Positions 1,857 to 64,000 of a stretch of DNA of 64,000 bases are shown piece after piece. The notes under the pieces were generated by a model. The model was given only the letters and a program-made list of their open reading frames with translations, had not been told where the DNA came from and did no database searches. Source of the DNA: an uncultured Finegoldia sp. (lineage in GTDB: Bacteria > Bacillota > Clostridia > Tissierellales > Peptoniphilaceae); NCBI RefSeq assembly GCF_947252345.1, contig NZ_CAMXVC010000001.1, positions 39,544 through 103,543 of the forward strand, written 5' to 3'. The translations under genes and the position numbers were made by a program. Numbering within the stretch: the stretch's first letter is position 1; every line of letters begins with the position of its first letter.

Positions 1857-1867
1857 AGGAGAGTTTT

Positions 1868-3223
1868 ATGAAAAAATTTATTTCGTTGGCACTTGCGCTA
1901 ACTCTTAGCTTGTCGACTGTATCGTTGGCAGATAACGAGAAGGCAGTCAAGCCATCGGCGAAAGCTGAATCGGTGACAAGCGTCGACAAAAATTCTGACA
2001 AAAAAGTTCAGACAGATAATCACAATAAAAATGATAAAAACGGTAAAAACGATAATTCAAAATCGAGCGATAAAAATGACAAGAAGGACAAAAATCCGAA
2101 CATCGCTACGAATGAAGATGGTATCTTCAAAAATGTAATTCATCAGAGATTTCAAGGTGACAACAGAGCAAAAACAGCTGTTAATGTTCAACGCCACTAT
2201 TTTGCAAACACTGACAAGGTTGTATTGGTCAACGACAACGCCTATCCCGATGCAATCAGTGCGACTAATATGTCGATGGGAAAATATCCACTATTGTACA
2301 CGGGAAAGGGAAAGCTTCCGATAGAAACCAAGTCTGCGCTCGACAAGATGTTCTTGGATGAGATATATTTGCTGGGCGGAGTAAATTCCATCAGCAAAAA
2401 AGTTGAGAACTATCTCAAAAAAGAATTTCCAACTGCAAAAATCACACGAATCCAAGGCAAAAACCGCTACGAAACTTCTTCTGCGTCAGCTAAGTATCGT
2501 GCTCAAGCGAAAAATTTGATATTTGCCGCTGGAACCAACTACGCAGACGCATTATACGCTACAAGCCTCGCAGCTTATCAAAAGGCTCCGATTTTGCTCG
2601 TGAGCAATGACGGCGTTGATAACTCGACTTTGAATTACATCAAATCAATCAAAAACATCGAAAACGTCACGATTGTCGGCGGAAATATTTCCGTGAATGA
2701 AAAAATAAAATCCACGATAGAATCCGCCACGAGAAGACAAGCTGTGAGATTGTCCGGAGTCGACAGATATGAATCGAGCGTTGAGGTGGCGAAAAGAGTC
2801 AACGCTAATCCAGCAGAAGTCATCACGACAAGTGGCGAGGTTTTTGCAGATGCTCTTGTGTCCTCAACAGTTGCGCAAAAAATCCAAGCTCCGATTTTGC
2901 TAGTGAAGAAAGATGTCATTCCAGAAAAAGTGAAGTTGTATTTGAAACACACAAATTCAATCTACAAATTGACTACAATCGGTGGGTTTAACACCGTAAC
3001 CAAGAACAACTACTCGACTCAGGTGATTTTAATATCGGGTCTTGACATCGACAAGCCCTTGGTAGACAGAAATGGAAAGGGAATCATCAAGGCTTTCACG
3101 AAAGATTACAAAAAATACTACATTCTTCCAAACAACAAATACTACAATTCGATAAAACAATACGACAAATTATTTGTGTATTTGCGTGACGCATTGGCAG
3201 AAGACTACAGACCGGTAGAATAA
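1868..3223 (+). CDS. secreted cell-wall-binding protein with three CWB2-type repeats
   Basis: RBS AAGGAGAG, then ATG at 1868. Signal peptide MKKFISLALALTLSLSTVSLA. Repeated NRYETS/DRYESS ... ADALSA ... PILLV modules are typical of cell wall binding repeat 2 (Cwp-like). Confidence 0.65.
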   Translation: MKKFISLALALTLSLSTVSLADNEKAVKPSAKAESVTSVDKNSDKKVQTDNHNKNDKNGKNDNSKSSDKNDKKDKNPNIATNEDGIFKNVIHQRFQGDNRAKTAVNVQRHYFANTDKVVLVNDNAYPDAISATNMSMGKYPLLYTGKGKLPIETKSALDKMFLDEIYLLGGVNSISKKVENYLKKEFPTAKITRIQGKNRYETSSASAKYRAQAKNLIFAAGTNYADALYATSLAAYQKAPILLVSNDGVDNSTLNYIKSIKNIENVTIVGGNISVNEKIKSTIESATRRQAVRLSGVDRYESSVEVAKRVNANPAEVITTSGEVFADALVSSTVAQKIQAPILLVKKDVIPEKVKLYLKHTNSIYKLTTIGGFNTVTKNNYSTQVILISGLDIDKPLVDRNGKGIIKAFTKDYKKYYILPNNKYYNSIKQYDKLFVYLRDALAEDYRPVE

Positions 3224-18103: not shown

Positions 18104-19408
18104 ATGGATTACGAAAAACAGCTCGAGGCTGTGGTTGACTTCATCAAAAGCGGTGAGAAAAGCGAAGAAGATTTTACGATTGGAATGGAGATGGAGCATT
18201 TCATAATAGACAAGGACAGTTTGAAAACTGTGTCGTATTTCGGAAAAAACGGAATCGGTGAGAGTTTGAAGGAGCTTCATAGAAATGGATTTGTCGCCTA
18301 CAAAGAGGGAGATTACATTCTCGGACTTGAAAACGATGATTTGGCTGTGTCGACAGAGCCTGGCAGTCAATTCGAGGTCGCTTTATCATCAAAGTTAAAA
18401 ATTGATGAGTTGAAGGATATCTACTTAAAAAATATGAGAAATTTGGTTAAATTTTTCGATTCGAAAAACCAAAAGATTGTAACGTTGGGCTATCATCCGG
18501 TGACAAAAATCGACGAGATTACAATCCTTCCCAAAAAAAGATACGATTTTATGTACAAGTATTTCAACACAAAAGGCACGATGGCGCACAATATGATGAA
18601 GGGAACTTGTTCGTTGCAATGCAGCATCGACTACTCATCAGAAGAAGATTTTGTCAAAAAATACAAAGTCACAAACTGTTTGTCGCCCGTTTTGTACGCC
18701 TTGTTTGACAATGCCTACATTTTTGAGGGAGAGCCTGCGAAAAGTCGCAATATGAGAGAAATCATCTGGGAGAACACCGACAAGGACAGGTCTGGAATTT
18801 ATCCATTTAGCTTCGACGGCGATTTGAGCTACAAAAAATACGCCGAACACATTTTGAACACGCCGTTGATTTTCTCTTTTGACGACAATCGCAACCCCGT
18901 CTACGTCGGAGAAAAAAAATTCAAGGACGTGTTCGACGATGTCAAGGATGTGGATATGATTTTTCACGCGTTGTCGATAGTCTTTCCCGATGTCCGAGTG
19001 AAAAAATACATCGAGATACGAATGATGGATGAAATCAAATACCCTCTCAATTTCGCTGCGATAGCCTTGATTAAAGGGTTGTTCTACGACAAAAACAATT
19101 TGGACAAATTGTCGGAGATTTTCAAAGACACTACCTACGATATGTGTATGAAGGCAAAAATAGATTCCAGACAAAAAGGACTTAACGCCGAATTTTTGGG
19201 CACAACTATGTTGGATTTTTCGAAAAATTTGGTTAAAATGGCAAAAGATGCCCTCGTTGATGGCGAAAAGAAATATCTCGTCGCGCTGGAAAATATGCTA
19301 GAAACGGGAATGAATCCACGAGATAAATTTGAACAAACTTACAAAAAAGAAGGATTGCGACAAGCTGTCATAGAACAAGAACTCAATTTGGAGGATTTAG
19401 ATGTATAA
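18104..19408 (+). CDS. gshA: glutamate--cysteine ligase (GshA-type)
   Basis: 434 aa. N-terminal GMEMEHF block resembles the GshA G-x-E-R-E core. Followed by an overlapping partner gene. Confidence 0.6.
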   Translation: MDYEKQLEAVVDFIKSGEKSEEDFTIGMEMEHFIIDKDSLKTVSYFGKNGIGESLKELHRNGFVAYKEGDYILGLENDDLAVSTEPGSQFEVALSSKLKIDELKDIYLKNMRNLVKFFDSKNQKIVTLGYHPVTKIDEITILPKKRYDFMYKYFNTKGTMAHNMMKGTCSLQCSIDYSSEEDFVKKYKVTNCLSPVLYALFDNAYIFEGEPAKSRNMREIIWENTDKDRSGIYPFSFDGDLSYKKYAEHILNTPLIFSFDDNRNPVYVGEKKFKDVFDDVKDVDMIFHALSIVFPDVRVKKYIEIRMMDEIKYPLNFAAIALIKGLFYDKNNLDKLSEIFKDTTYDMCMKAKIDSRQKGLNAEFLGTTMLDFSKNLVKMAKDALVDGEKKYLVALENMLETGMNPRDKFEQTYKKEGLRQAVIEQELNLEDLDV

Positions 19409-44220: not shown

Positions 44221-45159
44221 CTAGTTGAAATAGCTGCAAACAAATTCGTATTTGTTGGTTTTAAATTTGCTGTCATCTTCTGTGAATTTGATTGTCGCAG
44301 GCTCGATTGACAGATATTCGCCTTTTACTGTGTAGTTTACAGCCGTCTGTGTTTTAAGTAGCAAAAGTCCATCCACCTCTATTTTTAAGTTGTCACCGGT
44401 GGTTTTTGCGTAGAAAATATTGTTTTTGTCGACAAAAATCCCCGACACTTTGATGTCGTTGTAGATGTAGATTTTGTTTGAATCGACGATTATGTTGTCT
44501 GCCTTTTCGGAAAAGACAACCAGGCTTTTGAGAAATTCATCGTCAATTTTCCCTTGCTCGGACGTTTCGCCCTGAGTGGGTTGTTCGTCTTGTTTTTTGT
44601 CGGATGATTTCTCCTCAATTTCTCTTAGTTTTTCATCTACTTTCTTTTTGTCGCAGACAAACGTCGAGTTGTCTACGCTGTACAAAAAGCACTCCTCGAA
44701 GTCAATTTTCTTGTAATTGCCTTTAAATTCGTCATAAACTTCATCTATTTTTTTGTCGGATACGACCCTGTCTTTGAAAAAATCCGCCCTCTTGTATTTC
44801 ATCGTCGTGTTCACATACGAGCCTTTGTTGTTTGGAAAATACGTCAAGAAGCTGAATTTTTTGATTTTACCGTCATCTTCGTTGTAGATGTCGCCTTGGA
44901 AGATGTAGTTGAGCTCGTCGATTTTCAGACTGTAATATCCGCTGTAATTTTGTTTTAATTTGTCATCTAAAAGCTTTCTTGCGTTTATGATTTGAACGGC
45001 AGAGTACGCCCTCGCTTTGGCGTTCAAATAATTGTACTTGTATGCGTTCGTCTTTCTTATGTTTGTCACTTGAATCAAAACGAACGATATCACGACAACA
45101 ACGACGAAAATCATAAGCATTGCGTACACGCTTATGAATGCTCTGGATTTTTTGTTCAT
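44221..45159 (-). CDS. ComGG-like degenerate pseudopilin; last gene of the pilin operon
   Basis: N-terminal TM (KSRAFISVYAMLMIF) without a canonical cleavage motif. Overlaps the upstream gene by 4 nt. Confidence 0.4.
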   Translation of the reverse strand: MNKKSRAFISVYAMLMIFVVVVVISFVLIQVTNIRKTNAYKYNYLNAKARAYSAVQIINARKLLDDKLKQNYSGYYSLKIDELNYIFQGDIYNEDDGKIKKFSFLTYFPNNKGSYVNTTMKYKRADFFKDRVVSDKKIDEVYDEFKGNYKKIDFEECFLYSVDNSTFVCDKKKVDEKLREIEEKSSDKKQDEQPTQGETSEQGKIDDEFLKSLVVFSEKADNIIVDSNKIYIYNDIKVSGIFVDKNNIFYAKTTGDNLKIEVDGLLLLKTQTAVNYTVKGEYLSIEPATIKFTEDDSKFKTNKYEFVCSYFN

Positions 45160-45701
45160 TTTAATTTTTCTCCGATGTAGACTACAAATTTCTCATTGTC
45201 TTCTGTGATGTAAATATTCTTGTCATCATGTGTTGCGCTGAAATTGGCGACGTTTTGTCTCAATAAGTTCTTCGAGATTCGAGATGGCGATTCGCTGTTT
45301 TTTATTTTGTCGAAACTTCTTTTATCGGTGAATGTGTATCTGTAAATATCGCCGTCTTTTAGTGCGTAGTACACGTAGGTGTAGGCTTGTTGCTTGTAAA
45401 TCTTGTCGTCTTTTACGAGCACAAATCCGAGCGATTTGTCACTATCTCGCCATTTAAAATCATCGAAGTAGACACAAGAAGACTGTTCTATTTCTCTTTT
45501 TATGTAGTAGGCTGTGTGACTTGTATCATCGAGCCTGTCCTTGGATTCAAAGCTTTGGCTCATTATTTTGAAATTCGCCCTGAACGACAGGAAAATCACC
45601 GCCAAAATGATGGAGAAGATGAACAAACTCACCATAACCTCCAACAACGTAAACGCCTTATTTTTGTTTGTAAAACGACACATTTCTCGTAACATCTCCA
45701 T
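45156..45701 (-). CDS. type IV pilin-like / competence pseudopilin with a prepilin-type N-terminus
   Basis: NKAFTLLEVMVSLFIF class III signal. The true start may be an internal Met at 45683. Confidence 0.55.
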   Translation of the reverse strand: MEMLREMCRFTNKNKAFTLLEVMVSLFIFSIILAVIFLSFRANFKIMSQSFESKDRLDDTSHTAYYIKREIEQSSCVYFDDFKWRDSDKSLGFVLVKDDKIYKQQAYTYVYYALKDGDIYRYTFTDKRSFDKIKNSESPSRISKNLLRQNVANFSATHDDKNIYITEDNEKFVVYIGEKLK

Positions 45702-45981
45702 TTGTCACCGATACATCTACCTCGATTAGACCGTTATGATTGGTCTTTTTGACATTGACCGTGGAATTTTCGCTCAAAATAGATTTGTCCACATCGTCAC
45801 TCGATTTCAAGCTCTCGATGGCGTTGTCCAAATCGTGCAGAACGATTCTTTCGGTGTTTGCCTTTTTCTGCAAAACAAGCGCATTCTTCAACTGTGGATA
45901 GTAGACTACGACGCACAGGCTCACCAATAAAAGCGCGAACAAAACCTCGAGCAGAGTGAATCCTTTACTTTTTTTCTTCAT
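45658..45981 (-). CDS. major pseudopilin-like protein (ComGC/PulG-type)
   Basis: Canonical MKKKSKGFTLLEVLFALLLVSL. 107 aa. Confidence 0.6.
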   Translation of the reverse strand: MKKKSKGFTLLEVLFALLLVSLCVVVYYPQLKNALVLQKKANTERIVLHDLDNAIESLKSSDDVDKSILSENSTVNVKKTNHNGLIEVDVSVTNGDVTRNVSFYKQK

Positions 45982-46420
45982 ATTTTCTCACACTTCCTGT
46001 TGCAATATTGTAAGTGATGTGTATTTTAGATTTGTGGTTTTCGTAGGTGATTTTTGGAAATCCGGACGGTGCCGAAGAATCCGCAATAAAAACACGAGTT
46101 TTCGAATACTTGCCGTCTGTGTAGTACAATTTTCCGTACTTGATACTCCTCTTTGTGAAAACCTCAGAATTGTTCTTGTCAGAAATCTCGTAGGTGCCAT
46201 CATTTAACTTAAATTCCAGACTTTTTCCGGAGTTCATCGCAACGCTCCTCGCCGTTTTCAAATCGCTTAGAAGAGTGTTGATTTCGTTTCTGCAATTAAT
46301 ATCTGATTTGAAGTCGTATTTTATCACACAAACCATAATCACGACCGAAATAATGAACAGCCCTGCCAACACTTCCAGCAAAGTAAACGCATTTCTCTTT
46401 GTCCTACAAATTAAAAACAT
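45965..46420 (-). CDS. type IV pilin-like / pseudopilin
   Basis: KRNAFTLLEVLAGLFIISV N-terminus. Confidence 0.55.
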   Translation of the reverse strand: MFLICRTKRNAFTLLEVLAGLFIISVVIMVCVIKYDFKSDINCRNEINTLLSDLKTARSVAMNSGKSLEFKLNDGTYEISDKNNSEVFTKRSIKYGKLYYTDGKYSKTRVFIADSSAPSGFPKITYENHKSKIHITYNIATGSVRKYEEKK

Positions 46421-46973
46421 TTCCCATCACCACATACAACAAAAAAGAAGACCAAATCACGGGAACAAATGCAATCTCCTCGTTCGCTTCTTTTCTTATA
46501 ATAAACATCAACGCCCTGATTCCACTTATAATTCCAAGATAAAAAATGAAATTTACTAAGTCTGTAAGATTTTTACTCATACCAAGCCCCAGAATAATAA
46601 GAGAATCGACGCTGCCCATAAATCTGTCCTTCGTCACGAAATTGAAAATCGCAGGAATTAATAAAATCAGAAAACTCGTAACATAAAATCTCGAAAATAT
46701 AGAAACTACAATACTACACAGAATGAAAAATATACAATTAATCCAGTACACCTCGTTAGCTTTGAAATCATCAACCATCATATCAATAGACCCAAGTAGC
46801 AGTGCAAAGTTGTAGTTTGATTTTGTATCCGTTATGCGGAAAATCGCACACAAAAAAACCGAAATCAACACAAACACGCCAATGTTTTTGATGGATAATC
46901 TTTTCAAATAGAAATCCATCAAGCACTTAGCTATCAACATAACAACTATTATGGTTTCCATACTTTCCTCCAT
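46404..46973 (-). CDS. putative A24-family prepilin peptidase (short form, no methyltransferase domain)
   Basis: Polytopic. FMGSVDSLIILGLG resembles the GGGDVKL region. IAFVPVIW resembles the PFGPFLA tail. First gene of the operon. Confidence 0.4.
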   Translation of the reverse strand: MEESMETIIVVMLIAKCLMDFYLKRLSIKNIGVFVLISVFLCAIFRITDTKSNYNFALLLGSIDMMVDDFKANEVYWINCIFFILCSIVVSIFSRFYVTSFLILLIPAIFNFVTKDRFMGSVDSLIILGLGMSKNLTDLVNFIFYLGIISGIRALMFIIRKEANEEIAFVPVIWSSFLLYVVMGNVFNL

Positions 46974-47035: not shown

Positions 47036-47695
47036 TTAGTCAATTATTTTGAGTAAATAATCCCTGTTTAAGACGTGAATTTCCATCGCTTCAATGTAAA
47101 TTGCCTTGTCATCGGCAAACTTCTTCAATTCCTGGTTCAAGCTCGGCCTGTTTACACGAAGGATATCTGCTAGCATAGTCTGAGATGTCGGAAGCTTCAA
47201 ATAATCCACCTCGTCTAAGTGAAGAATCCAATACGCAAGTCTCTGCGACACCTTCGAATACTGTGTCGCTCTTATGACGAGTTTGTTGAAACAAGTGTAT
47301 TCCGCTACAAATTTCAAGATGTTTTTCGTGAGTACAATGTCCGTGTCCATAATCTTCTCGAACTCTTTGAAAGGCAAGAAATACACCTTCGTCTTCTTGG
47401 TTGCGTAAACATCGTAGGGAAACTCACGAGTATGCCCAAAATACAAATAAAAGGGAAAAGCGTCCCCCGTAAGATAATATGAGGACACTATTTCCTTTCC
47501 GTTTATTGTGTATTCGCAGGCTTTCAAACAACCTTTTTCGATAAACATTGCATAATTTAACTCTTCCTCTTTGCTAAGAACCATTTCGCCTGATTCATAG
47601 TTTTTAGAAAAAAAATCTAATTTAAGTAATTCATTCTTTGTTCTCTCAGATATATTATCAAATAGTTTAAAATCTAATATTCTAGCCATTTCCAC
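47036..47695 (-). CDS. Crp/Fnr-family transcriptional regulator
   Basis: cNMP-binding-like N-domain. C-terminal HTH (SQTMLADILRVNRPSLNQELKKF). Confidence 0.7.
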   Translation of the reverse strand: MEMARILDFKLFDNISERTKNELLKLDFFSKNYESGEMVLSKEEELNYAMFIEKGCLKACEYTINGKEIVSSYYLTGDAFPFYLYFGHTREFPYDVYATKKTKVYFLPFKEFEKIMDTDIVLTKNILKFVAEYTCFNKLVIRATQYSKVSQRLAYWILHLDEVDYLKLPTSQTMLADILRVNRPSLNQELKKFADDKAIYIEAMEIHVLNRDYLLKIID

Positions 47696-47715: not shown

Positions 47716-48798
47716 TTATTTTTTCATTATAGCTCTTATCACCATAATAAACAATAAAATTATGCCCAAATAACCATTTAGTACATATACATATTTTACC
47801 AAAATATCGAACTTAAGTAAAAGGCCAATTACCATTCCCAAAACTCCGATAATAAGTGTTGCCATTCTGAATTTCTTAGTATTTTCTTCAAAGAATCTTG
47901 CAATTACAGTCCATAGTAGTGGTACTGCTGTAGTGTAAATTCCCAAAATTATAAAAATCGAGAAAATGTTTGCAAACAACGGATTAATATCACTTGCTAG
48001 TATTAATGAAGGTATTTGTGAACTATGAACTTCATTTATAGATAATAATATAGCAAATGCCATTATAATAGTTGCTAGCGAAAAACCTGCTGCGCCTAGA
48101 ATTTGTCCGTACTTAGTTTCTTTTAAATTCGATGAATTTTTCCCAACTGTTGCACAAAATGCAGCTAACCACAACATACAAAAACCTACATATGACAATG
48201 CTGAAGCCACAAATCCAAAATTTGATGCTTGATTAATCTGTTTTTTCTCCACAAAAATTTTCAACGCTTCTAGTGAAGAACCTAAGCTTGAAATATTTTT
48301 AGCTATTGAAATTAATCCTACTAATATAGCCAATATAACTATCACAGGTCCTATTTTCCCAATAACATCTACAATTCTGTTTAGCCCACACATAACCGTT
48401 ATTATTGCCAATGCACCTAGTACAATTCCACCTACAAATGGTGGAGCGTTGTAATGTTGAACTGCTGTTGCCTGAGCTCCAGATATCATTACTGTAAATG
48501 ATAAGAATATGAAAAATATTGAGAAATAATCGTAGAATGTTCCCAAACCTTTTCCACAAATATGTTTGTATATGTCGTTAGGATTGTCGAATTTTTCTTC
48601 AAAGCCGTATTTTACAAATTGTACTCCTACAAAAGCTAAAGCTAAAAAGCAAATACACACTCCAATTAATCCAACAAGCCCATAGGATGAGAAGAATTGC
48701 ATTAACTCTTGACCTGTTGCGAATCCAGAACCTATTAGCAAAGCTATGAAGGCTCCTGCATAATTGACTACTTTTGAGATTTTTATTTTTTCATTCAT
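47716..48798 (-). CDS. YkvI-family membrane transporter (amino-acid-transporter-like)
   Basis: N-terminal GFATGQELMQFF motif typical of YkvI. About 11 TM helices. Directly downstream of the grd genes. Confidence 0.55.
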   Translation of the reverse strand: MNEKIKISKVVNYAGAFIALLIGSGFATGQELMQFFSSYGLVGLIGVCICFLALAFVGVQFVKYGFEEKFDNPNDIYKHICGKGLGTFYDYFSIFFIFLSFTVMISGAQATAVQHYNAPPFVGGIVLGALAIITVMCGLNRIVDVIGKIGPVIVILAILVGLISIAKNISSLGSSLEALKIFVEKKQINQASNFGFVASALSYVGFCMLWLAAFCATVGKNSSNLKETKYGQILGAAGFSLATIIMAFAILLSINEVHSSQIPSLILASDINPLFANIFSIFIILGIYTTAVPLLWTVIARFFEENTKKFRMATLIIGVLGMVIGLLLKFDILVKYVYVLNGYLGIILLFIMVIRAIMKK

Positions 48799-48846
48799 AG
48801 CAATTCCTTTCTTTTTAAAATCTTAATAAAAGCTAAAAAGCTTTTA

Positions 48847-50136
48847 TTAAGATTTAAATATTGTAGGTTTGTCGACCTTAGTTTCTAAAGCTTTAATTGC
48901 ACGTTCTACTAATTCTTCTCTCAATCCATCTTCACGAGATTGTAATTCAGGATTACCAACTGGATATGGAATTGCGACTGTAGGTATAATTCTGTTTGCT
49001 CCTACTGATTGTGAAATTGTAGTTATAGTAGCCATATGAACTATAGGGATACCATATCTTTCGATTTCTTTTACCATCGTTGCACCGCAACGTGTACAAG
49101 TACCTCAGGTACTAGTCATTATAACGCCGTCAACGTGGGCATCCTTCAATTCTTTTCCGATTTCCTTACCAAATCTCTTGGCGTTTGCTACAGATGTTCC
49201 AGTTCCTGTTGTAGTGTAGAAATATTTGAACACATTTCCGATAACGCCTTCTTTTTTAAGTCTTGTAAGTTGGTCTAATGGAGCAACTCTGTCTGCCTTT
49301 GCGTTACAGTATACAGGGTCAAATCCTCCGTGGATTGTGACAAATTTGCCCTTCAATTCGTCCAAATCACTGACATCGTATTTCGCCCATTTTTGTGCTG
49401 ATGCCGATTGAACTTTGTCAGGGTTTCCTTCAGGAACAACACCACCAGTTGTGATAAGTGCGATTGTAGCTTTGCTCATATCAGCGATTGGTGCTGCTGG
49501 TTCAACTTCGTCAAATTCTGGCATTGGAAGTTCTGTTTCAAATTCTTCGTTGTTGAATCTCTTGAGAAGCATTTCAACTGCACGTCTAGCTCCGATTTTG
49601 TCAGAAAATTCTGTCAAACGTCTTCCTTGTGCAAGATATCCGTCTTCTTTTGGAGAAAGCTTTTTGCCTTCGATTATTTTATTAGTCAATGCTGCCATTT
49701 CTTTGATGGCTTGTTTCATTTTTGCTGCTGAATCAGCTGTCAAGATGATGTAGCTGTTAAGTCTACACATATCAACTGCTGGGTTTTCGTTGTACATTCC
49801 TGTTACCATTGGAACGTCTTTGTCTTTTAATAGATTGATAACTCCCGAACAAGCCATACCGTATCTACCAGCGTTGAATGCAGGTCCTGCTACGACTATG
49901 TCTGGTTTTACTTTTTCAAATACATCTAGTATGAATTTGTCTGATACTTCTTTGTGTTCGTTGTAGTAGTTGTCACCACAGACGATTGTTCCTACAACTT
50001 GTCCGTCTACCAAAGCCTTGTCGAAGGCTTGTGCACAACCTACAGGTTTTTCTTCAAAATGAGGTTCATAATCAGCTTTGTCTTCTCCACCTATTTGTCC
50101 AAAAAACTGATTTACATAGTATAATATTCTCTTCAT
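48847..50136 (-). CDS. grdB: glycine/sarcosine/betaine reductase protein B selenoprotein subunit (GrdB-like); in-frame UGA (Sec) at 49105-49107
   Basis: The track shows 49105..50136 ending ...IMTST-TGA, then 48847..49077 in the same frame. Read-through gives TST-U-GTCTRCGATMVKEIERYGIP..., 429 aa in total, GrdB-sized. Confidence 0.7.
49078..49092 (-). promoter_or_regulatory. candidate bacterial SECIS hairpin 12 nt 3' of the UGA
   Basis: mRNA reads UGA GGUACUUGUACA CGUUGC-GGU-GCAACG: a perfect 6-bp stem with a GGU loop. Confidence 0.45.
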
Positions 50137-50145
50137 AATAACCTC

Positions 50146-51432
50146 CTAGTAAAGCTTAACTGTAAGATTGTGGAATCCTATTTCAGATGTAGAACCAGTA
50201 ACTGCGTTGAGTTCGCATACTATTGTTCCTTTTTCTTCATCCAAACATCCATCCCATCCACCAGCTAAGTTCTTGATAGCTTCAACACTACCGATAATCT
50301 TGTCTGGTTTATCCAAGTGAACAAGGTGTGATACGTTTCCAGTAGATACAACTGCACATGCTTCTTTCTTAGCATCTGCCAATGGTTGAGAATCTCCTGC
50401 CCAACCAGCACATTCGTCAGTGATTAGAACTGATTTGATACCAGCTTTTTCCAATCCCGATGAAATCATAACCAAGTCTGAGTCTGGATTTCCGTATCCT
50501 TCTTCTGATATAACAACTCCGTCTGCCGCTAACATCTTGCAAAGTTTTACAGTGTAATCGCAAGTTCTGAATTTACCATCCAAAGTAGTAAGCTCTGGAA
50601 CCATAATTTCTCCGACAAAGTTGATAGTCTTGCCGTGTTCCTTGTATAATTCTTTTATAACTGAATTGTTTTGGTGTTGGTAAGTTGTAATCTTATCGCA
50701 AGCAGCTACGCAGTTACCACTTACAACAGCTCCGTCTAATTCTTCGTTAGGATGAAGAACTGTAGGAAGAATCTTCTTAACATCTACTCCGTAAATGTAA
50801 ACATCGTGAAGTAGACCTTGCGCTATCATCATTTGTGCATAGACAACTCTTGGCAAATCTTTAAGTCTTTCTGATTCTGTCTTTATGTCTTTTATTTCGA
50901 ATACTTCGCTGTTGTCAGCTTTTACATTTTCCAAAGCGTATCCCAAATACTCAGCCGATTTCAAACCAACAAGTCTTGCGCAAGTTTCGTGTTCGTGTGG
51001 TTCGATGCCTTTTTCAACTTTTATATCGACAACAACGTTTAATGTCTTAGAAAATGGAGTATAATCAGCTCCTTCTCCCCACATATCGATGATACCTTCT
51101 TGGAAACCAACTACATCACCGACAGTTACTACAGCGACATTTTTCATAATCTTAGTGATACCTTCACCAAGTTGTTCGATTTCTCCTGTAACGCCTGGTG
51201 TTTTGTTAGTTCTGCCAACTCTAAATCTAGGCTCGATACAATCTTTAACTGGAATGATTCTTGTCTTTTCGCCCGGTTTTGCAATGTCTATATCGATTTC
51301 CGTTACAAAATCAACGTCTTTCAAAAAATCAATCATCTCATCTTTGTTGATAAAAAGTGTTTTGTTTTCAACTTTAGTCACATCTGAAAACTTAACATCT
51401 TCTATCAAACAATTTTGATATTCTAATTTCAT
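50146..51432 (-). CDS. grdE: glycine-reductase-complex protein B proprotein (GrdE-like)
   Basis: 428 aa. N-terminus MKLEYQNCLIEDVKF. Position and size match grdE immediately upstream of grdB. Confidence 0.65.
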   Translation of the reverse strand: MKLEYQNCLIEDVKFSDVTKVENKTLFINKDEMIDFLKDVDFVTEIDIDIAKPGEKTRIIPVKDCIEPRFRVGRTNKTPGVTGEIEQLGEGITKIMKNVAVVTVGDVVGFQEGIIDMWGEGADYTPFSKTLNVVVDIKVEKGIEPHEHETCARLVGLKSAEYLGYALENVKADNSEVFEIKDIKTESERLKDLPRVVYAQMMIAQGLLHDVYIYGVDVKKILPTVLHPNEELDGAVVSGNCVAACDKITTYQHQNNSVIKELYKEHGKTINFVGEIMVPELTTLDGKFRTCDYTVKLCKMLAADGVVISEEGYGNPDSDLVMISSGLEKAGIKSVLITDECAGWAGDSQPLADAKKEACAVVSTGNVSHLVHLDKPDKIIGSVEAIKNLAGGWDGCLDEEKGTIVCELNAVTGSTSEIGFHNLTVKLY

Positions 51433-51446
51433 AACCTACTCCTTCT

Positions 51447-51797
51447 CTAATTCTCTATACCTTCTTTAAGTAAGACCGCATCCAACACGCAATAATCGTC
51501 ATTATTTCGGTAGTCTGGTTTTCTTTCTCCCATTGTGTTTTGATAAGTTGTGATGGAGTTTTCGATAATCTCGATGGATTTTTCCGAAAATCCCTTCTTC
51601 AACACAACGCTTCTAACCGGAGAATAAAACATCCTGATGGATGCAGCTAGAGGATGCGTCACCAAAGAATATCCCAAATGTGTGAGATCTCTTACTTTAT
51701 ATAACACATCCAAATATTCCCCTTTGACTTCAATACTGTTTTGATATTTGTTAATTACACTACTATTATTACTAACAATCAAAATATCTTTTTCCAT
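51447..51797 (-). CDS. grdX: GrdX-like small protein
   Basis: Start at 51797 with AGGAGGG RBS. MEKDILIVSNN...VRDLTHLGYSLVTHPL resembles GrdX (IVTNN ... VRDLVH.GY.LL.HPL). Confidence 0.5.
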   Translation of the reverse strand: MEKDILIVSNNSSVINKYQNSIEVKGEYLDVLYKVRDLTHLGYSLVTHPLAASIRMFYSPVRSVVLKKGFSEKSIEIIENSITTYQNTMGERKPDYRNNDDYCVLDAVLLKEGIEN

Positions 51798-53127: not shown

Positions 53128-53305
53128 ACCATCTCCTTTTGTTAACTTGATTATACTATAATTTTTTGTCTATGAGTCATATATTTATATTTGTTGCTAC
53201 TTTGTTTGTATTTCTGAGATTGGTCATAGAATATTTCACTGAACTTGTGTCAACATCTTTTCTAATATGCAAAAAAGGTGTATAATTAGTATTTTGGAGG
53301 GTAAT

Positions 53306-54325
53306 ATGTTCGTTTCAAATACATACGAGGAAATTATAAAGCTTGAAAATTTAATATTTGTAGATGTGAGAAGTGAGTACGAATACAATCTTGAAACCAT
53401 CCCTCACGCAATCAATATGCCGATTCTCGACAACGATGAAAGAGTCGAAATCTCGACGATTTACGATATGGGAAACCACGAGAAGGCGAAGGAGCTCGCA
53501 ATTCGATACGCTTCTGTCAAGTTGGAGGATTTTTATGTTAAAATCCGTGACCTGTCGGAAAATCACAACGTGTGTCTTTTTTGCCAACGAGGTTCGATGA
53601 GAAGTAGCGTAATTTTCAACATACTGAAATCTATGGGGCTTTCAATTTACAGGCTAAAAGGCGGCTACAAGGCGTATCGCAAATTCGTAATATCCGCTCT
53701 TGAACGAGAAATCAAATCGCACGAATACGTCAACATCAACGGATTCACGGGCGTCGGAAAGACGGAGATTCTGGATTTTCTCGAAAGAGAAGGACACAAT
53801 GTGCTGAACTTGGAAAAACTCGCAAATCACCGTGGCTCAATCCTCGGCAACGCAGGACTTGGCAAACAGCCTTCGCAAAAAATGTTCGAGAGCCTTCTTT
53901 ATGAAAAGTTCACTGAGTTTGACGGAAAGCTCGTGTTTGTCGAAAGCGAGAGCAGCAAGATTGGCACCATCAACGTCGTCAAAGACCTACGCCAAGCCTA
54001 CAACAATTCCGCCCACCAAGTATTCGTGAATTGTTCGATTGACAAGAGAATCGAAAGAATCAAAAATGACTACCTGCAAAGCGAAAAATCAATCCCCGAC
54101 ATCAAAATCGGCATAGAATACTTGTCCAAATACATCGGCAAGGCCAACTCCGATATTTTGTTGGATAAACTCGAAGAAAAAGACTACGATGACATTATAA
54201 GAACTCTTATAGTGCAATACTACGACAAAAACTACGCCGTCAAGAAAAAGGACTTCGAGTTGAAGGTTGACAACGTGAACTCGAATGTTTGTGCCGACGA
54301 AATAATCAAATACTATGAACAATGA
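53306..54325 (+). CDS. mnmH: tRNA 2-selenouridine synthase MnmH (SelU)
   Basis: Rhodanese domain with catalytic Cys (CQRGSMRS). P-loop GFTGVGKTEIL. Start at 53306 with GGAGGG RBS. Confidence 0.75.
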   Translation: MFVSNTYEEIIKLENLIFVDVRSEYEYNLETIPHAINMPILDNDERVEISTIYDMGNHEKAKELAIRYASVKLEDFYVKIRDLSENHNVCLFCQRGSMRSSVIFNILKSMGLSIYRLKGGYKAYRKFVISALEREIKSHEYVNINGFTGVGKTEILDFLEREGHNVLNLEKLANHRGSILGNAGLGKQPSQKMFESLLYEKFTEFDGKLVFVESESSKIGTINVVKDLRQAYNNSAHQVFVNCSIDKRIERIKNDYLQSEKSIPDIKIGIEYLSKYIGKANSDILLDKLEEKDYDDIIRTLIVQYYDKNYAVKKKDFELKVDNVNSNVCADEIIKYYEQ

Positions 54326-58294: not shown

Positions 58295-58929
58295 TATACT
58301 TCTCCGATTTTTTTGTAAGATACTTCCTCAACTTCTCTCAATAGAACTTCTGATTTATCTTCAAGAGTTGCTATTTCTTCGGAAACTTTGCTACTATCAC
58401 CTAATTGCTTCATATTTATCTTCGCATTCAACATAACAGATTTCATACTGGAATGTAATAAATATGCACTTGCCAACAAGTCTGTTATTGCATATTTATC
58501 GATGTATTTAGATATTTGTTTAATCAATTCTAATGCTTCCATCATAACTCTCGCTGAGGACATTGGCGATTCTGTCGCGATGATGTAACCATCAGCAATC
58601 ATTTTCTTTCTGTAAGCTTTTTCTTCTTCTGTTTCTTTTGGCAATTTGTAAGCTTGAAGAACTGCATCGAAGCTTTTAGTGTCTTCAACCATTTTACCCT
58701 TCAATTCCTCGATGATTTCAGTGAGTCTAGCTACATGACCTTTGATTTTTTGTTGAGTTTCTTCGTCCAATGCTTTGAAAGACTTCTTGTCTTCAGTTAA
58801 GTAGAAACTCATATTACCAATTCCAACACCTAAAAGTGCAGTCAACGCACTGATAGAACCTCCACCTGGCAGTTCCTTTGAGTTAACATTGTCAATAAAT
58901 TGTTCTAATGTTTGATCCATAAACATCAT
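58294..58929 (-). CDS. cyclodeaminase/cyclohydrolase-family protein (FtcD C-domain-like)
   Basis: GGGSISALTALLG motif. Confidence 0.6.
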   Translation of the reverse strand: MMFMDQTLEQFIDNVNSKELPGGGSISALTALLGVGIGNMSFYLTEDKKSFKALDEETQQKIKGHVARLTEIIEELKGKMVEDTKSFDAVLQAYKLPKETEEEKAYRKKMIADGYIIATESPMSSARVMMEALELIKQISKYIDKYAITDLLASAYLLHSSMKSVMLNAKINMKQLGDSSKVSEEIATLEDKSEVLLREVEEVSYKKIGEV

Positions 58930-59735
58930 AGCTCTAATACCTCCATAATCCTTTCTAAATCATCATTCGATAGATATTCTATTTCTATCTTTCCACCTTT
59001 TCTCATCGGCTTGATTTTGACCTTTGTTGAGAATTTTTCTACAAATCTATTTTGTAAATCCATCAAAAATGGGTCTTCGCTTTTCGAAACTTTTTCGATT
59101 TCTCTGACGTTGGTTTTCTTTGTCAACAGTTTGTTGAGAAGACTTCTTCTCTTTTTCGTGTCGTCAATCGCAAGCAAACTCCTCGCCTGAGAAGATGTAA
59201 TCTCTTTGTTTTTGAGATGTTCTAGCGATGTGTCGTCCAGGTTTAACAATCTCAATGTGTTTGCCACATACGACCTTGACTTCGATAATTTGTCCGCCAA
59301 CTCCTTCTGAGTTAACTCATAGCTCTCCATCAAACTCTTGTAAGCTTCGGCTTCTTCGACTGCGTTCAAATCCTCACGTTGAATGTTCTCAATGAGTGAG
59401 ACTTCCCTGACTTCTTTGTCCTCCATATCCTTGACAATTACGGGAATGTCGGTCAAACCAGCTTGCGTACTCGCCAAAAATCTTCTCTCACCGGCGATTA
59501 TCTCGTATTTGTCGCCCTTTTTCCTGACAATAATCGGCGAAATAACCCCGTATTCCTTGATTGAGTTCGCTAGTTCATTAATCTTGTCTTTTTCAAAATA
59601 AGTTCTCGGTTGGTCTTTTCTCCTGATTATTTTGGATAGTTCGATTTTGACAATCGAATCTGAACTTGTCGTATCTATAATATTTTGTGGAATAAGGGCA
59701 TCAAGCCCTCTGCCCAATCCTTTTTTCTTAACCAT
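58926..59735 (-). CDS. parB: chromosome partitioning protein ParB (Spo0J)
   Basis: GLGRGLDAL N-terminus. GERRFLAS. Overlaps parA. Confidence 0.85.
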   Translation of the reverse strand: MVKKKGLGRGLDALIPQNIIDTTSSDSIVKIELSKIIRRKDQPRTYFEKDKINELANSIKEYGVISPIIVRKKGDKYEIIAGERRFLASTQAGLTDIPVIVKDMEDKEVREVSLIENIQREDLNAVEEAEAYKSLMESYELTQKELADKLSKSRSYVANTLRLLNLDDTSLEHLKNKEITSSQARSLLAIDDTKKRRSLLNKLLTKKTNVREIEKVSKSEDPFLMDLQNRFVEKFSTKVKIKPMRKGGKIEIEYLSNDDLERIMEVLEL

Positions 59736-60499
59736 TATACAAATTCCTCCGCTAATCTCTTGTAAGCAATGGCTCCTTTGGAGTTTTTGTCGTAACGAAT
59801 GACGCTCATTCCATAGCTTGGGGCTTCTGCTAATCTAATATTGCGAGGTATCATCGTCGTAAACACCTTGTCTTTGAAGTATTTTTTAACTTCTTCAACC
59901 ACTTCCAAGCTTAGATTGTTCCTACCATCAAACATACTCATCAAGATGCCTTCTATTTCAAGGTTTTCGTTAAGCGAACTTCTCACCAAGTTGATAGTGT
60001 TCATAAGCTGGCTGACCCCTTCAAGTGCGTAAAACTCACATTGGATAGGGATTAAAACCGAATCCGCCGCCACTAGAGCGTTTATGGACAACGTGCCCAA
60101 TGATGGAGGACAATCTACAAAGCAGTAATCATATCCTTTTACATTAGAAAGTATATCCTTCAACACCTTTTCCTTGTTATTTGAATTTATAAGCTCGACC
60201 TCAACGCCTGACAAATCCGATGTCGCTGGGATTATATCGACATTTTCTTCATCCGTGTTCAATATAAAATCCTCGTCAAATTCATCGTGAACCATCAAAT
60301 CGTAGACGCTTTTTGACAATTCAAACTTGTTAACTCCAAATCCAGAAGTCGTGTTTCCCTGTGGGTCCAAGTCAACAACGAGTATTTTTTTGCCTTTCAA
60401 GCCAAGAGCTGCTGACAAATTAACAACAGTAGTCGTTTTTCCAACTCCACCTTTTTGATTAAATACACATATTGTTTTCAAATTTACAGCTCCTTCCAT
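59735..60499 (-). CDS. parA: chromosome partitioning ATPase ParA (Soj)
   Basis: Deviant Walker A KGGVGKTT. Confidence 0.85.
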   Translation of the reverse strand: MEGAVNLKTICVFNQKGGVGKTTTVVNLSAALGLKGKKILVVDLDPQGNTTSGFGVNKFELSKSVYDLMVHDEFDEDFILNTDEENVDIIPATSDLSGVEVELINSNNKEKVLKDILSNVKGYDYCFVDCPPSLGTLSINALVAADSVLIPIQCEFYALEGVSQLMNTINLVRSSLNENLEIEGILMSMFDGRNNLSLEVVEEVKKYFKDKVFTTMIPRNIRLAEAPSYGMSVIRYDKNSKGAIAYKRLAEEFV

Positions 60500-60523
60500 A
60501 AATATTATAGCACAAATAATATG

Positions 60524-61756
60524 CTAAAATGTTTCACGTGAAACATTTTTCAAAATCATAAGGCGAAGCTCGCTGATTGCTCTGTTAGAAACCCTGTTTC
60601 TTATTTTATTTCTCTCTCCGTAAAGCTGTAATTTTAGCGTTTTTATTTCGTTTTTGTATCCTAAACCGATGTAGACAAGACCGGCATTTTCTCCTGAAGC
60701 GTAGCCCGTGGTAGATATCGCGCAATCCACTTGGAATTTGTCGAACATTCTCTGAACCATTTCCGCTGCAACATTTTCGCTCACGACGCCGCAAGTGTCT
60801 ATCGTCTGTTTTTTTACTCCCAGCAAGTCAATCTTTGCCTCATTTGAGTAGACAACCAAAGACCTTTTCAAGTAATCGCTTATACCAGCAACGTTAACGA
60901 GCTTGCTTGCAATCATTCCTCCAGTTATGGACTCGGAAGTCATTATAGTCAAGTCGTTTTCCTTTAAAACTTTGTACAGTGACTGTTCAATCGTTTCGTC
61001 GTTTTCACCAAATACATACACGCCAAGCCTTTCTCGTAGTGTTTTCTTCTTTTCATCTATCATACGAATTGCTGTTTGTTTATCCACTGCCTTCGCTGTA
61101 ATCTTCAATATTCTCTTGTTCTTCTTGAAATAAGGGGCGACCGTAGGATTTGTTGACGATTGGATAATGTCCTTGACCCTTTCATTCATATCCCACTCAC
61201 CCAAGATTGAAATGTTCAACGTCTCCGATAAAATGCAGTCACTCGCGTATTTTTTCAAAACATCTTCAACCTGATTTTCGTATAAAGCCTTCATCTCGCT
61301 TGGTGGACCCGGCATAAAAAGTATCATTTTGCCGTTGTTTTCTATCAACGCACAATCCGATGTGCCATTTCTGTTTTCAAATACAATCGCATCTTCGGGA
61401 AACATACACTGGCTGATGTTTGTTTCAATCGCATTTTCATCCTCGTTGAAGTATTTGCGGAGACGAAGGTAGCTTTCCTCGTTAATCACCATTTCCTTGC
61501 CCAGACAATCACAGCAGCATTTCTTGGTGATATCGTCCTCCGTTGGTCCGAGACCTCCTGTGGTTATAATGAGGTCATTGTTTTGCAAAGCCTCTGTTAT
61601 TTCTCTGTGCAATCTTTCGTAATTATCTCCGACCACCACTCTTTTATACAAATCGAATCCGAGCTCTTTCATTTTGATGGAAAGGTAGTTGGAATTGGTG
61701 TCCAAAGTGTCTCCCAAGAGTAATTCCGTCCCTACGGCTATTATTTGAACTTTCAT
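60524..61756 (-). CDS. cinA: competence/damage-inducible protein CinA
   Basis: 410 aa. MocF/CinA N-domain (IIAVGTELLLG) plus C-terminal CinA domain. Confidence 0.8.
   Translation of the reverse strand: MKVQIIAVGTELLLGDTLDTNSNYLSIKMKELGFDLYKRVVVGDNYERLHREITEALQNNDLIITTGGLGPTEDDITKKCCCDCLGKEMVINEESYLRLRKYFNEDENAIETNISQCMFPEDAIVFENRNGTSDCALIENNGKMILFMPGPPSEMKALYENQVEDVLKKYASDCILSETLNISILGEWDMNERVKDIIQSSTNPTVAPYFKKNKRILKITAKAVDKQTAIRMIDEKKKTLRERLGVYVFGENDETIEQSLYKVLKENDLTIMTSESITGGMIASKLVNVAGISDYLKRSLVVYSNEAKIDLLGVKKQTIDTCGVVSENVAAEMVQRMFDKFQVDCAISTTGYASGENAGLVYIGLGYKNEIKTLKLQLYGERNKIRNRVSNRAISELRLMILKNVSRETF
60530..60545. promoter_or_regulatory. parS site (perfect consensus TGTTTCACGTGAAACA)
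   Basis: Exact 16-bp palindrome, embedded in a 24-bp perfect palindrome, between parA and cinA. Confidence 0.8.
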
Positions 61757-61865
61757 ATTTCCTCCATATCATAATACCTTTTTTTGATTTTACCCCTCTT
61801 AAATCGCCTCTCAGAGAGTTGTTTTTTCTCAATTAAATTATATCACTTAATTCGTCCGAGAAAAA

Positions 61866-61881
61866 AGTTTCACGTGAAACA
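61866..61881. promoter_or_regulatory. parS site (AGTTTCACGTGAAACA, 15/16 match)
   Basis: Between cinA and rsmG. Confidence 0.7.
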
Positions 61882-61892
61882 TTTTATAAAAG

Positions 61893-61920
61893 AAAAAAGA
61901 GTGCATCTTAAATGCACTCT
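61893..61920 (-). terminator. rho-independent terminator of rsmG
   Basis: Minus-strand AGAGTGCAT-TTAA-GATGCACTCT plus TTTTTT. Confidence 0.6.
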
Positions 61921-61935
61921 AGTTAATTTTCAAAA

Positions 61936-62628
61936 TCAAAGAGGATTCTTTTTTGGTTTGCCAGCTCCTCTTGGATATTTTTTTGGAGTTTCTTTTATTT
62001 TTTTAATCACGACTAGACTTCTGTCTTCGCCGTCAATCTTGTAATCAATTGTCTTTTCGATTTTTCCTCCGAGAATTTTGATGGCGTTAGTTCCCACATC
62101 TGTTTCGTCGGATTTGCCCTTCATAGCAATCATATATCCTCCGACTTTTACAAATGGAAGACAATACTCGGACAATGTGTCGAGTTTCGAAACTGCACGG
62201 GAAATACAGTAGTCGTAAGCCTCCCTGTACTGTTTTGTTCTCGTGCATTCCTCTGCCCTTTCGTGAACGGCGTTGATATTAGTGAGTTTCAGTTCATTTA
62301 TTACATCTTTTAAGAAATCAACTCTTTTTCTCAGGCTGTCGAGCAACGTGAAGTCCAAATCGTTCCTCGCTATTTTTAATGGTATCGCTGGAAATCCGGC
62401 ACCCGTTCCTACGTCGATAATTGTTTTGTTTTTTTCAAATTCAAACAGATTTAAAACGTACAACGAATCGACAAAATGTTTCACGTGAAACATTTCTTCA
62501 TCGGTTATGGCGGTCAAGTTCATCACCTTGTTTTTTTCGAGAACTAAGCTCATATAAGTGTTGAGTTGTTGTATTTGATTGTCGTCAAGTTCGATGTCGT
62601 ATTTCAAAAGCGTTTCTTTTAGTGGCAT
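61936..62628 (-). CDS. rsmG: 16S rRNA (guanine527-N7)-methyltransferase RsmG
   Basis: GidB-like length. SAM-binding DVGTGAGFP. Confidence 0.85.
62477..62492. promoter_or_regulatory. parS site (perfect consensus) inside the rsmG coding sequence
   Basis: TGTTTCACGTGAAACA flanked by AAA/TTT. Confidence 0.75.
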
Positions 62629-64000
62629 TATTTCTTCCTCGTTTCCATATAAATCAACAACACGTTGATGTCTGACGGGCTGACTCCGCTTATTCTGCTG
62701 GCTTGTCCGAGAGATTCCGGCTTAATGTCGTTGAGCTTTTGCACAGCTTCGTTGGAAAGTCCCGTGACTTCGTGGTAGTCGCTAATCACATCGAGTTTTC
62801 TGTTTTCAAGCTTTTTAAACTGTTTTATCTGGCTCATTTGCTTAGCGATATAGCCTTCGTATTTGATGTGAGTTTCCACTTGTAACCTCAAATACCTCGG
62901 CAATTCAGGTCTTTCTGAGTCAAATTCTTCTGTCTTATCGTAAGTCAATTCCGGTCTTTTTATCAAATCCAACAAAGTGATTCCCGTTTTTAGCTCCGAT
63001 GAATCCAAAGCTCTGAGTTTTTCGTTTGTTTCTTCTGTCGGAGTGACCATCACGTTCGACAACCTCTCAATTTCGTCCTCGATTGTCTTTTTCTTTTGAA
63101 GCATTTTCTCGTATCGTTCGTCACTTGCAAGACCTATTTCGTGCGCTCTTTCCGTCAATCTCAAATCGGCGTTGTCCTGTCTCAATGTCAATCTGTATTC
63201 GCACCTGCTCGTCATCATCCTGTAAGGCTCGTTTGTGCCTTTGGTTACCAAATCGTCTATCAACACACCGATGTAGGCATCCGACCTGTCCAGTACAAAA
63301 GGCTCTTTGCCGAGCAAATTCATACCAGCGTTGATTCCTGCGATTATTCCCTGACCGGCAGCTTCTTCATATCCGCTTGAACCGTTGATTTGTCCTGCGA
63401 AGAATAAATTATTTATCTCCAAATGCTCCAATGTCCTCTTTAATATCGTAGGATCTATGCAATCGTACTCGATTCCGTAGGCGCTGCGCATAAATTTCAC
63501 GTTTTCAAAGCCGATTATGGTCTTATACATCTCTTTTTGTACTTCTTCCGGTAGAGTCGATGACACACCTTGAACGTACATTTCCTTTGTGCTCAATCCT
63601 TCTGGCTCGACAAAAACTTGATGCTCGTCCCTTTCCGAAAATCTCACGATTTTGTCCTCGATTGAAGGACAATAGCGAGGGCCAACGCCCTTGACAATTC
63701 CAGCATACATCGGCGACCTTTGCAAATTATCCTCGATTATTTGCTTTGTTTTAAGCGTAGTATATGTCAAGTAACAGTTTTCTTGTTTTTTAGAAATATC
63801 CTTGCCATCATTCAAAAACGAAAATGGAATTACCTCGTTGTCTCCCGGTTGAACTACCATTTTGTCATAATCTAAGCTGTCGCGGTGAACTCTCGCAGGT
63901 GTTCCCGTCTTGAACCTTCTGAGATTGATTCCCAACTTCTTCAATGACTCCGACAATTTCTTCGATGATTTCATCCCGTGAGGCCCTGACTCGTAAGTAT
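62628..64000 (-). CDS. mnmG: tRNA uridine 5-carboxymethylaminomethyl modification enzyme MnmG (GidA), C-terminal two thirds; the 5' end lies beyond the window
   Basis: [18 protein letters not shown] and the C-terminal [14 protein letters not shown]. The open frame continues past position 64000. Confidence 0.85.

Follow-up and report, generated by a model that had tools for sequence, protein, structure and literature searches.

The question raised by positions 48847 to 50136 (minus strand) of a 64,000-nucleotide (nt) stretch of DNA from an uncultured Finegoldia sp. (contig NZ_CAMXVC010000001.1; the whole stretch is hereafter called the window) is whether an open reading frame (ORF) that halts at a TGA and a short ORF that resumes in the same frame beyond it are two genes or two parts of one. 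The region, part of a Finegoldia genome, is almost certainly one gene, which encodes the selenocysteine (Sec)-containing B subunit of a Stickland reductase of the glycine reductase type.

The first ORF (50136..49105, minus strand) begins with an ATG, preceded at a distance of 7 nt by an AGGAGG ribosome-binding site, and runs for 343 codons to the TGA at 49107..49105. Beyond it lie 27 nt (49104..49078) reading GGT ACT TGT ACA CGT TGC GGT GCA ACG, or GTCTRCGAT, followed by the ATG at 49077 with which the second listed ORF begins in the same frame, ending at a TAA at 48849..48847. The fused product comprises 343 residues, Sec and a further 85 residues, 429 in total, with Sec in the context MTST-U-GTCTRCGATM. 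An initial annotation, made from the sequence alone, had described two same-frame ORFs parted by the TGA at 49105-49107 and nine sense codons, and had proposed a 429-residue read-through protein with the context TST-U-GTCTRCG; all of its coordinates hold, and translation confirms the product. It had also called the gene a GrdB-like selenoprotein, and the fused translation matches TIGR01918 (glycine/betaine/sarcosine/D-proline family reductase selenoprotein B) over the full profile (positions 1-431 of 431), with 599.1 bits against a cut-off of 65.45, and scores 508.5 bits on Pfam PF07355. In the alignment that the annotation had suggested, the UGA falls in the same column, within the ST-U-G/CxxC motif, as the TGA of a gene at L081 2603-3913 (numbers with L denote the loci compared here), which lies in a grdE-grdA-grdB-grdC-grdD operon and passes the GrdB equivalog TIGR01917 with 800 bits.

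To follow the UGA through the family, homologues were scanned in one genome per species, giving 80 loci with relatives that span query residues 1-429, from genera including Finegoldia, Anaerococcus, Peptoniphilus, Parvimonas, Tissierella, Peptostreptococcus, Olsenella and Sporomusa. The codon-by-codon comparison covers 80 distinct homologous sequences, and a site count of 84 includes paralogues. A cysteine or a genuine stop in homologues had been named beforehand as the observation that would speak against recoding, and neither occurred: all 84 homologous sites have TGA, none has a Cys codon or a different stop, and the frame continues open beyond every one of them. The window selenoprotein is 94% identical to its counterpart in Finegoldia magna 12T272. 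At codons +1 to +9 past the TGA, the amino acids are invariant and six of the codons vary synonymously (for example GGT/GGC/GGA/GGG and ACC/ACT/ACA/ACG); that the amino acids are kept despite such changes indicates that the stretch is translated in the grdB-like frame. At +10, 21 of the 80 sequences have Ile or Leu instead of the ATG with which the second ORF would begin, so that a separate start there is not conserved. In Finegoldia itself, Sec insertion at this UGA would be expected from the general bacterial mechanism.

Twelve nt downstream of the UGA (GGUACUUGUACA), the mRNA has the makings of a perfect 6-base-pair stem, CGUUGC (49092..49087) with GCAACG (49083..49078), closed by a GGU loop (49086..49084). 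This hairpin, which had been noted beforehand and is exact to the base, had been taken for a bacterial Sec insertion sequence (SECIS), and both an above-threshold Rfam match and frozen synonymous sites in the stem uphold that identification. SECIS_4, the sole Rfam match in the 64-kb window, was found by cmscan with 64.8 bits (gathering threshold 38; E = 3e-13 over 64 kb) across model positions 1-38 of 38. Its consensus, GGuACcUGUACUCGUUGCGGUGCAACGAUgGUuAAAGA, differs from the window at four of 38 positions, all variable or unpaired in the model, and this whole-model match to RF01990 leaves no substantive difference between the two elements. In a canonical GrdB gene, in a GrdH-type gene and in further members of the clade to which the window protein belongs (see below), SECIS_4 likewise matches right behind the TGA, which marks it as the SECIS of this protein family. 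The hairpin loop begins 19 nt after the UGA and contains a G; this loop position and loop G reportedly fit the general description of bacterial SECIS elements given by Zhang and Gladyshev in 2005.

The synonymous sites of the stem are nearly immobile. The Arg codon is CGT in 80/80 sequences although six codons are available, the Ala codon is GCA in 80/80 out of four, and the codon between CGT and the loop is TGC in 79/80, the sole exception being a TGT that retains a G-U pair. Third-position entropy is 0 to 0.1 bit in the stem codons, as against 0.94 in the GGN of the loop and 1.3-1.9 in nearby fourfold codons. The five inner pairs of the stem are formed in 100% of 57 distinct 38-mers.

Public records bear out the expectation of the initial annotation that standard gene finders would mis-annotate such a gene: metagenome calls consist of a 343-residue and a 76-residue gene, and GenBank EFK93198.1, a F. 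magna protein named selenoprotein B, terminates at MTST. Among relatives in protein databases, most end at the Sec site (341-349 residues), the full-length ones read W there and none reads Cys; the W points to gene calls made on contigs under genetic code 4. Clustered at 90%, the truncated selenoprotein form falls into a cluster of 546 members. The exact sequence of the partner protein, encoded immediately upstream, occurs on nine contigs, and wherever the contig is long enough the downstream gene is the 343-residue call; this recurrence beside an identical partner excludes an assembly error. A regular-expression scan for other CxxU/UxxC selenoprotein candidates and for split ORFs returned, among real genes, the grdB-like gene only.

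Several observations weigh against this account or narrow what it can claim. The SECIS_4 consensus itself codes for GTCTRCGATMVK, so that part of the Rfam score is coding conservation, which is why the synonymous sites were used as an independent test. The outermost C-G pair of the stem is formed in only 72% of the 57 distinct 38-mers, and in a covariation search none of the six inner stem pairs showed a compensatory double change; outer pair 6-30 appears as C-G, U-G and U-A, not above base-frequency expectation. As judged on the aligned homologues, the support for the SECIS is constraint, not covariation. Folding of a 51-nt stretch gave -9.8 kcal/mol versus -9.2 +/- 2.5 for shuffled sequences (z = -0.24); folding energy being uninformative for a 15-nt hairpin, the Rfam model and the synonymous-site analysis were used instead. 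The protein scores below the GrdB, GrdF and GrdH cut-offs, so that the substrate is not established by these models. Finally, a search of all sizeable window ORFs with ARAGORN, Rfam, NCBIfam and Pfam, extended by a walk of ~10 kb beyond both ends, found none of selA, selB, selC, selD, grdA, grdC, grdD and thioredoxin in the window or ~10 kb past each end.

A gene for tRNA 2-selenouridine synthase, mnmH/selU (53267..54325, plus strand; 324 bits on NF008750), lies 3 kb from the selenoprotein gene. MnmH/SelU needs selenophosphate from SelD, and its presence therefore implies that the genome has selD. Both selB and tRNA-Sec occur near the homologous grdB-like gene group in some related loci, and F. 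magna can use glycine as sole carbon source and requires selenium, more severely on glycine (bioRxiv 10.64898/2026.09.07.749807). With mnmH/selU nearby and this selenium need on record, Sec machinery in this genome, whose absence the initial annotation had named as a second point against recoding, is strongly implied; together with GrdA, GrdC, GrdD and thioredoxin, it must be encoded elsewhere in the genome.

Two other readings of the TGA have to be weighed. Standard gene callers and one GenBank record treat it as a true stop, which would leave a truncated or decaying 343-residue grdB and an independent 76-residue ORF from the ATG at 49077, and the failure to find Sec machinery in the window would agree with this. 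Such a stop is scarcely credible, however: the TGA is fixed in 80 distinct sequences from many genera whose flanks fall to 59% identity, unlike a pseudogene, protein-level constraint holds, in the same frame, for the nine codons that separate TGA from ATG, and the ATG itself is unconserved, three features that jointly exclude a true stop with an independent small ORF. Moreover, the 85 C-terminal residues complete the TIGR01918 profile, and a curated SECIS stands directly after the TGA. The W carried at the site by several database homologues might instead suggest that TGA is reassigned to Trp or Gly (genetic code 4 or 25) and that the residue is not Sec, but these readings stem from metagenome contigs called under another code. 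Within the window, 7 of 60 ORFs stop at TGA, including mnmH, parB and rsmG, whose lengths match Pfam, and the grdB-like gene holds the sole in-frame TGA among the 60; in Finegoldia, a screen for alternative codes singles out CGG alone and not UGA (10.1101/2021.06.18.448887). Reassignment is thus the least probable reading of all, with a negligible chance of being right.

With the UGA read as Sec, the protein can be placed within its family. Profile scores and identities set it in a sister clade to the curated GrdB, GrdF and GrdH, named at family level only. It reaches 543.1 bits against a cut-off of 602.2 on the GrdB model (TIGR01917), 554.5 against 800 on the GrdF model (NF040794) and 525.3 against 775 on the GrdH model (NF040795), its lowest family-specific score; six other clade members likewise stay below the cut-off on the GrdB model (522-590 bits). 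Average-linkage clustering of 92 sequences separates the window clade (81 sequences, 67.5% mean identity) from canonical GrdB (nine sequences, 54.6% identity between the groups) and the GrdH type (two sequences, 45.6%).

GrdB, the selenoprotein B of glycine reductase, has been characterised in Eubacterium acidaminophilum and Clostridium sticklandii. The window protein shares with the GrdB of TIGR01917 its length, the PF07355 domain, the ST-U-G...CxxC motif, the Sec column and SECIS_4, as well as a GrdE-type partner with an Asn-Cys cleavage site and a grdX gene upstream, but is only ~51-55% identical to it and scores beneath its cut-off. The operons also differ, that of the window having no grdA between grdE and grdB and no grdC and grdD after them, but a transporter and a Crp regulator instead. 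GrdF and GrdG (NF040794 and NF040793) give the top family-specific scores for both subunits and resemble the window proteins in the grdG-grdF-like gene order without grdA between and in the pyruvoyl-forming site of the partner, whereas the scores (554 versus 800 and 477 versus 780) are far too low for membership and the curated GrdF model lies nearer to canonical GrdB than to the window clade. GrdH and GrdI (NF040795) have the family, the Sec position and SECIS_4 in common with the window pair, but identity is ~45-46%, the score is below the cut-off and GrdI is without the Asn-Cys cleavage site kept by the window partner (PMC10838667). More distant members of the superfamily give partial, low matches far under their cut-offs: the C-terminal half of the window protein aligns with PrdB of D-proline reductase (87 bits), and its partner with FarE of the fluoroacetate reductase FarB/FarE (161 bits). 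Two features of the window proteins, the CxxC and the cleavage cysteines, are reported to be missing from FarB and FarE, respectively (PMC10838667). A sequence search of the PDB with both protein B subunits gave no match.

The partner gene, grdE-like, ends 9 nt before the grdB-like start. Its product carries a cleavage and pyruvoyl-forming site at Asn240-Cys241 (Cys codon 50712..50710), together with Cys245, in the motif SGN|CVAAC, compared with SGN|CVSAC in canonical GrdE and SGSFMPC in the GrdI type. Of 77 aligned partners, 75 have the Asn-Cys site, and the two that do not are those of the GrdI type. On the GrdG model NF040793, the window partner reaches 476.8 bits against a cut-off of 780. 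GrdE is cut at the cysteine to form a pyruvoyl group that makes a Schiff base with glycine or sarcosine, and the betaine-type GrdI is no proprotein (PMC10838667, PMC9908766). Since the window partner retains the Asn-Cys site, the window enzyme would belong to the pyruvoyl type rather than being a betaine reductase. The clade as a whole stands apart from the three curated classes, with predicted pyruvoyl (Schiff-base) chemistry.

The general bacterial pathway of Sec insertion and, for the enzyme, what has been established for glycine reductase (Andreesen 2004; Wagner 1999; Bednarski 2001, relayed in PMC10838667 and PMC9908766) allow the following sequence of events to be proposed. During translation, the UGA at 49107..49105 would be decoded as selenocysteine, the hairpin 12 nt downstream bringing SelB with Sec-tRNA(Sec) to the ribosome, and this recoding would yield the 429-residue protein with Sec344 in ST-U-GTC-TR-C. 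The co-transcribed GrdE-like proprotein would cleave itself at Asn240|Cys241, leaving an N-terminal pyruvoyl group that would bind the amine substrate as a Schiff base. Attack of Sec344 on the alpha-carbon would then release ammonia (or methylamine) and pass the carboxymethyl group to selenoprotein A, from which GrdC and GrdD would release acetyl phosphate for ATP formation, thioredoxin re-reducing GrdA. The CxxC beside Sec, here Cys347 and Cys350, is said to protect the selenol (PMC10838667). The cleavage motif is intact by sequence, and the chemistry of the window enzyme, like its substrate, is what we infer.

Glycine is the substrate that we favour, with moderate confidence, because grdX is described as a mark of glycine reductase operons (PMC4536689) and Finegoldia ferments glycine. 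Sarcosine (N-methylglycine) is a distinctly weaker candidate, and a sarcosine-specific protein B, with the protein B of the Finegoldia glycine reductase encoded elsewhere, is correspondingly unlikely, although it has several points to recommend it. The best family-specific scores are those to GrdF (554 bits) and, for the partner, GrdG (477 bits); a hydantoinase and an amidase accompany the gene group in 11-15 of 80 loci, which recalls the route through creatinine, 1-methylhydantoin, N-carbamoylsarcosine and sarcosine (PMC5364220); and genomes such as L081 have the group in addition to a canonical grdE-grdA-grdB-grdC-grdD operon. Both scores, however, are far under their cut-offs of 800 and 780, and canonical GrdB scores 755 on the GrdF model, above any clade member, so that curated GrdF belongs within the canonical group and not within this clade. 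In addition, no hydantoinase or amidase lies near the gene group in the window, grdX speaks for glycine (PMC4536689), and F. magna ferments glycine (bioRxiv 10.64898/2026.09.07.749807), sarcosine use not being reported.

That the gene encodes the betaine reductase GrdH, and stands behind reported betaine use and trimethylamine formation, would accord with the use of betaine as electron acceptor by F. magna, in which a putative betaine reductase is said to be encoded (bioRxiv 10.64898/2026.09.07.749807), and GrdH peptides from vaginal metaproteomes, attributed to F. magna and Parvimonas micra, point the same way (PMC12208373). It is nevertheless very improbable. GrdH gives the lowest family-specific score (525 versus a cut-off of 775), a true GrdH-type paralogue from Parvimonas reaches 773 and shares just 46% identity with the window protein, the window partner has both pyruvoyl-site cysteines (SGN|CVAAC), which the GrdI type lacks (SGSFMPC; PMC10838667), and no BCCT-type betaine transporter is adjacent, unlike at the Parvimonas grdI-grdH pair. 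A second homology search and cluster look-ups, made to find a Finegoldia paralogue of the GrdH or canonical GrdB type, returned no Finegoldia-named match. A fourth class of protein B, whose substrate would be neither glycine, sarcosine nor betaine, is improbable too, though less so than GrdH and more so than sarcosine; if it were true, another small N-substituted glycine or a host-derived amine would fit.

The surroundings of the gene (Table 1) are shared widely. The grdX/grdE-like/grdB-like module is conserved in 80 of 80 loci and present in at least 80 species, with YkvI- or NSS-type transporters and Crp or GntR regulators. Of the 80 loci, 37 have a YkvI-type gene directly after the grdB-like gene and 26 have an NSS sodium symporter there; a Crp homologue is found near the module in 23, and a GntR regulator upstream of it in 29. 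The symporter takes the place of the YkvI-type gene in F. magna 12T272 and Finegoldia bin-70 (L008 11522-12712 and L009 11302-12645), the two closest Finegoldia genomes, an exchange that suggests non-orthologous replacement with the substrate unchanged. For the YkvI-type protein of the window, no Pfam or NCBIfam match was obtained. The listed grdX ORF reaches 51932 (161 residues) and public calls disagree (116 versus 161 residues); as the profile match is limited to residues 51-160 and an AAGGAGG precedes the ATG at 51797, the real protein probably has 116 residues.

Table 1. Features of the grdB-like locus in window coordinates
Feature	Position	Strand	Details
grdB-like gene, reductase selenoprotein B, UGA read through	48847..50136	-	429 residues, Sec344, MTST-U-GTC-TR-C
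Selenocysteine codon, in-frame TGA	49105..49107	-	invariant across homologues
SECIS, Rfam RF01990 SECIS_4	49067..49104	-	64.8 bits; core hairpin 49092..49078
grdE-like proprotein, protein B partner	50146..51432	-	PF09338, 620 bits, full length; WP_297809905.1 identical (uncultured Finegoldia sp.)
grdX, GrdX family protein	51447..51797	-	NF038093, 114.7 bits, residues 51-160 of the long ORF
YkvI-family membrane protein, 360 residues, putative substrate importer	47716..48798	-	UniRef name
Crp/Fnr-type transcription regulator	47036..47695	-	PF00027, PF13545

The hydantoinase beside the module in 11-15 of the 80 loci is a D-hydantoinase, and the amidase is isochorismatase-like. One example is L039 4554-6799 (493 bits on TIGR02033), and further cases are L018, L019, L021, L023, L027, L029, L032, L044, L050 and L085; the context suggests that sarcosine or glycine is supplied from hydantoins or 1-methylhydantoin (PMC5364220). 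In Sporomusa silvacetica (L087 11377-15007), the genes that follow the module encode a corrinoid protein and two corrinoid-dependent methyltransferases of the MttB family, and ~8 kb further along (L087 19254-21295) are tRNA-Sec (74.8 bits) and selB. Taken as a whole, the transporter, hydantoinase/amidase and MttB contexts fit both glycine and sarcosine. A Parvimonas locus (L046 631-4924, minus strand) carries a GrdI/GrdH-type pair and a BCCT-like transporter gene ~5 kb from the module, so that two kinds of protein B stand side by side.

Between the grdB-like stop and the YkvI-type gene of the window, an AT-rich perfect palindrome, TAAAAGCU-UUUU-AGCUUUUA (48827..48846, minus strand), has too few G-C pairs to score as a terminator, and scanning the operon for promoters and terminators yielded no candidate above chance level. 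Right after the Crp gene, a run of ComG-type pseudopilin genes (44221..46973, minus strand) shows prepilin N-terminal methylation motifs and weak ComGD, ComGE and ComGF matches; the order of Crp followed by ComG is shared with F. magna 12T272 (L008 13575-16372).

Elsewhere, the window adjoins the replication-origin gene set, with parB, parA, rsmG and mnmG inside it (58926..63974, minus strand) and mnmE, jag, yidC, rnpA and rpmH just past its right end (L088 1-10000). A glutamate-cysteine ligase-like gene (18104..19408, plus strand), whose 256 bits on TIGR01436 fall short of the cut-off, shares 8 nt with a gene for a 436-residue protein with weak circularly permuted ATP-grasp matches (19401..20711, plus strand); in this obligate anaerobe, the two may form a pair for gamma-glutamyl-thiol synthesis. 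Two large surface proteins are encoded at 22062..25652 and 1664..3223 (both plus strand): one, of 1196 residues, has internalin-like leucine-rich repeats and SlpA-like cell-wall-binding repeats, and the other, of 519 residues, is SlpA-like. The codon CGG is nearly absent, with two occurrences in ~19,000 codons of 60 window ORFs, both in doubtful N-terminal extensions, and this scarcity agrees with what has been published on Finegoldia, namely a tRNA-CCG bearing tryptophan identity features and an unassigned CGG.

The family, the Sec codon and the SECIS are already curated in NCBIfam, Pfam and Rfam, and both the recoding event and the annotation pitfall are known. The lesson of the locus is therefore one of annotation rather than biology: gene callers split or truncate the gene, or give W under code 4, and through this mishandling of UGA hundreds of wrong copies have entered public collections. 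The remaining loose end is a widespread protein B clade named at family level only, in a group for which a PDB sequence search yields no solved protein B structure. For the organism, the gene is probably part of a selenium-dependent reductive branch through which Finegoldia, an anaerobe of skin and wounds, would obtain ATP from glycine-type substrates, a reading that fits recent F. magna physiology (bioRxiv 10.64898/2026.09.07.749807).

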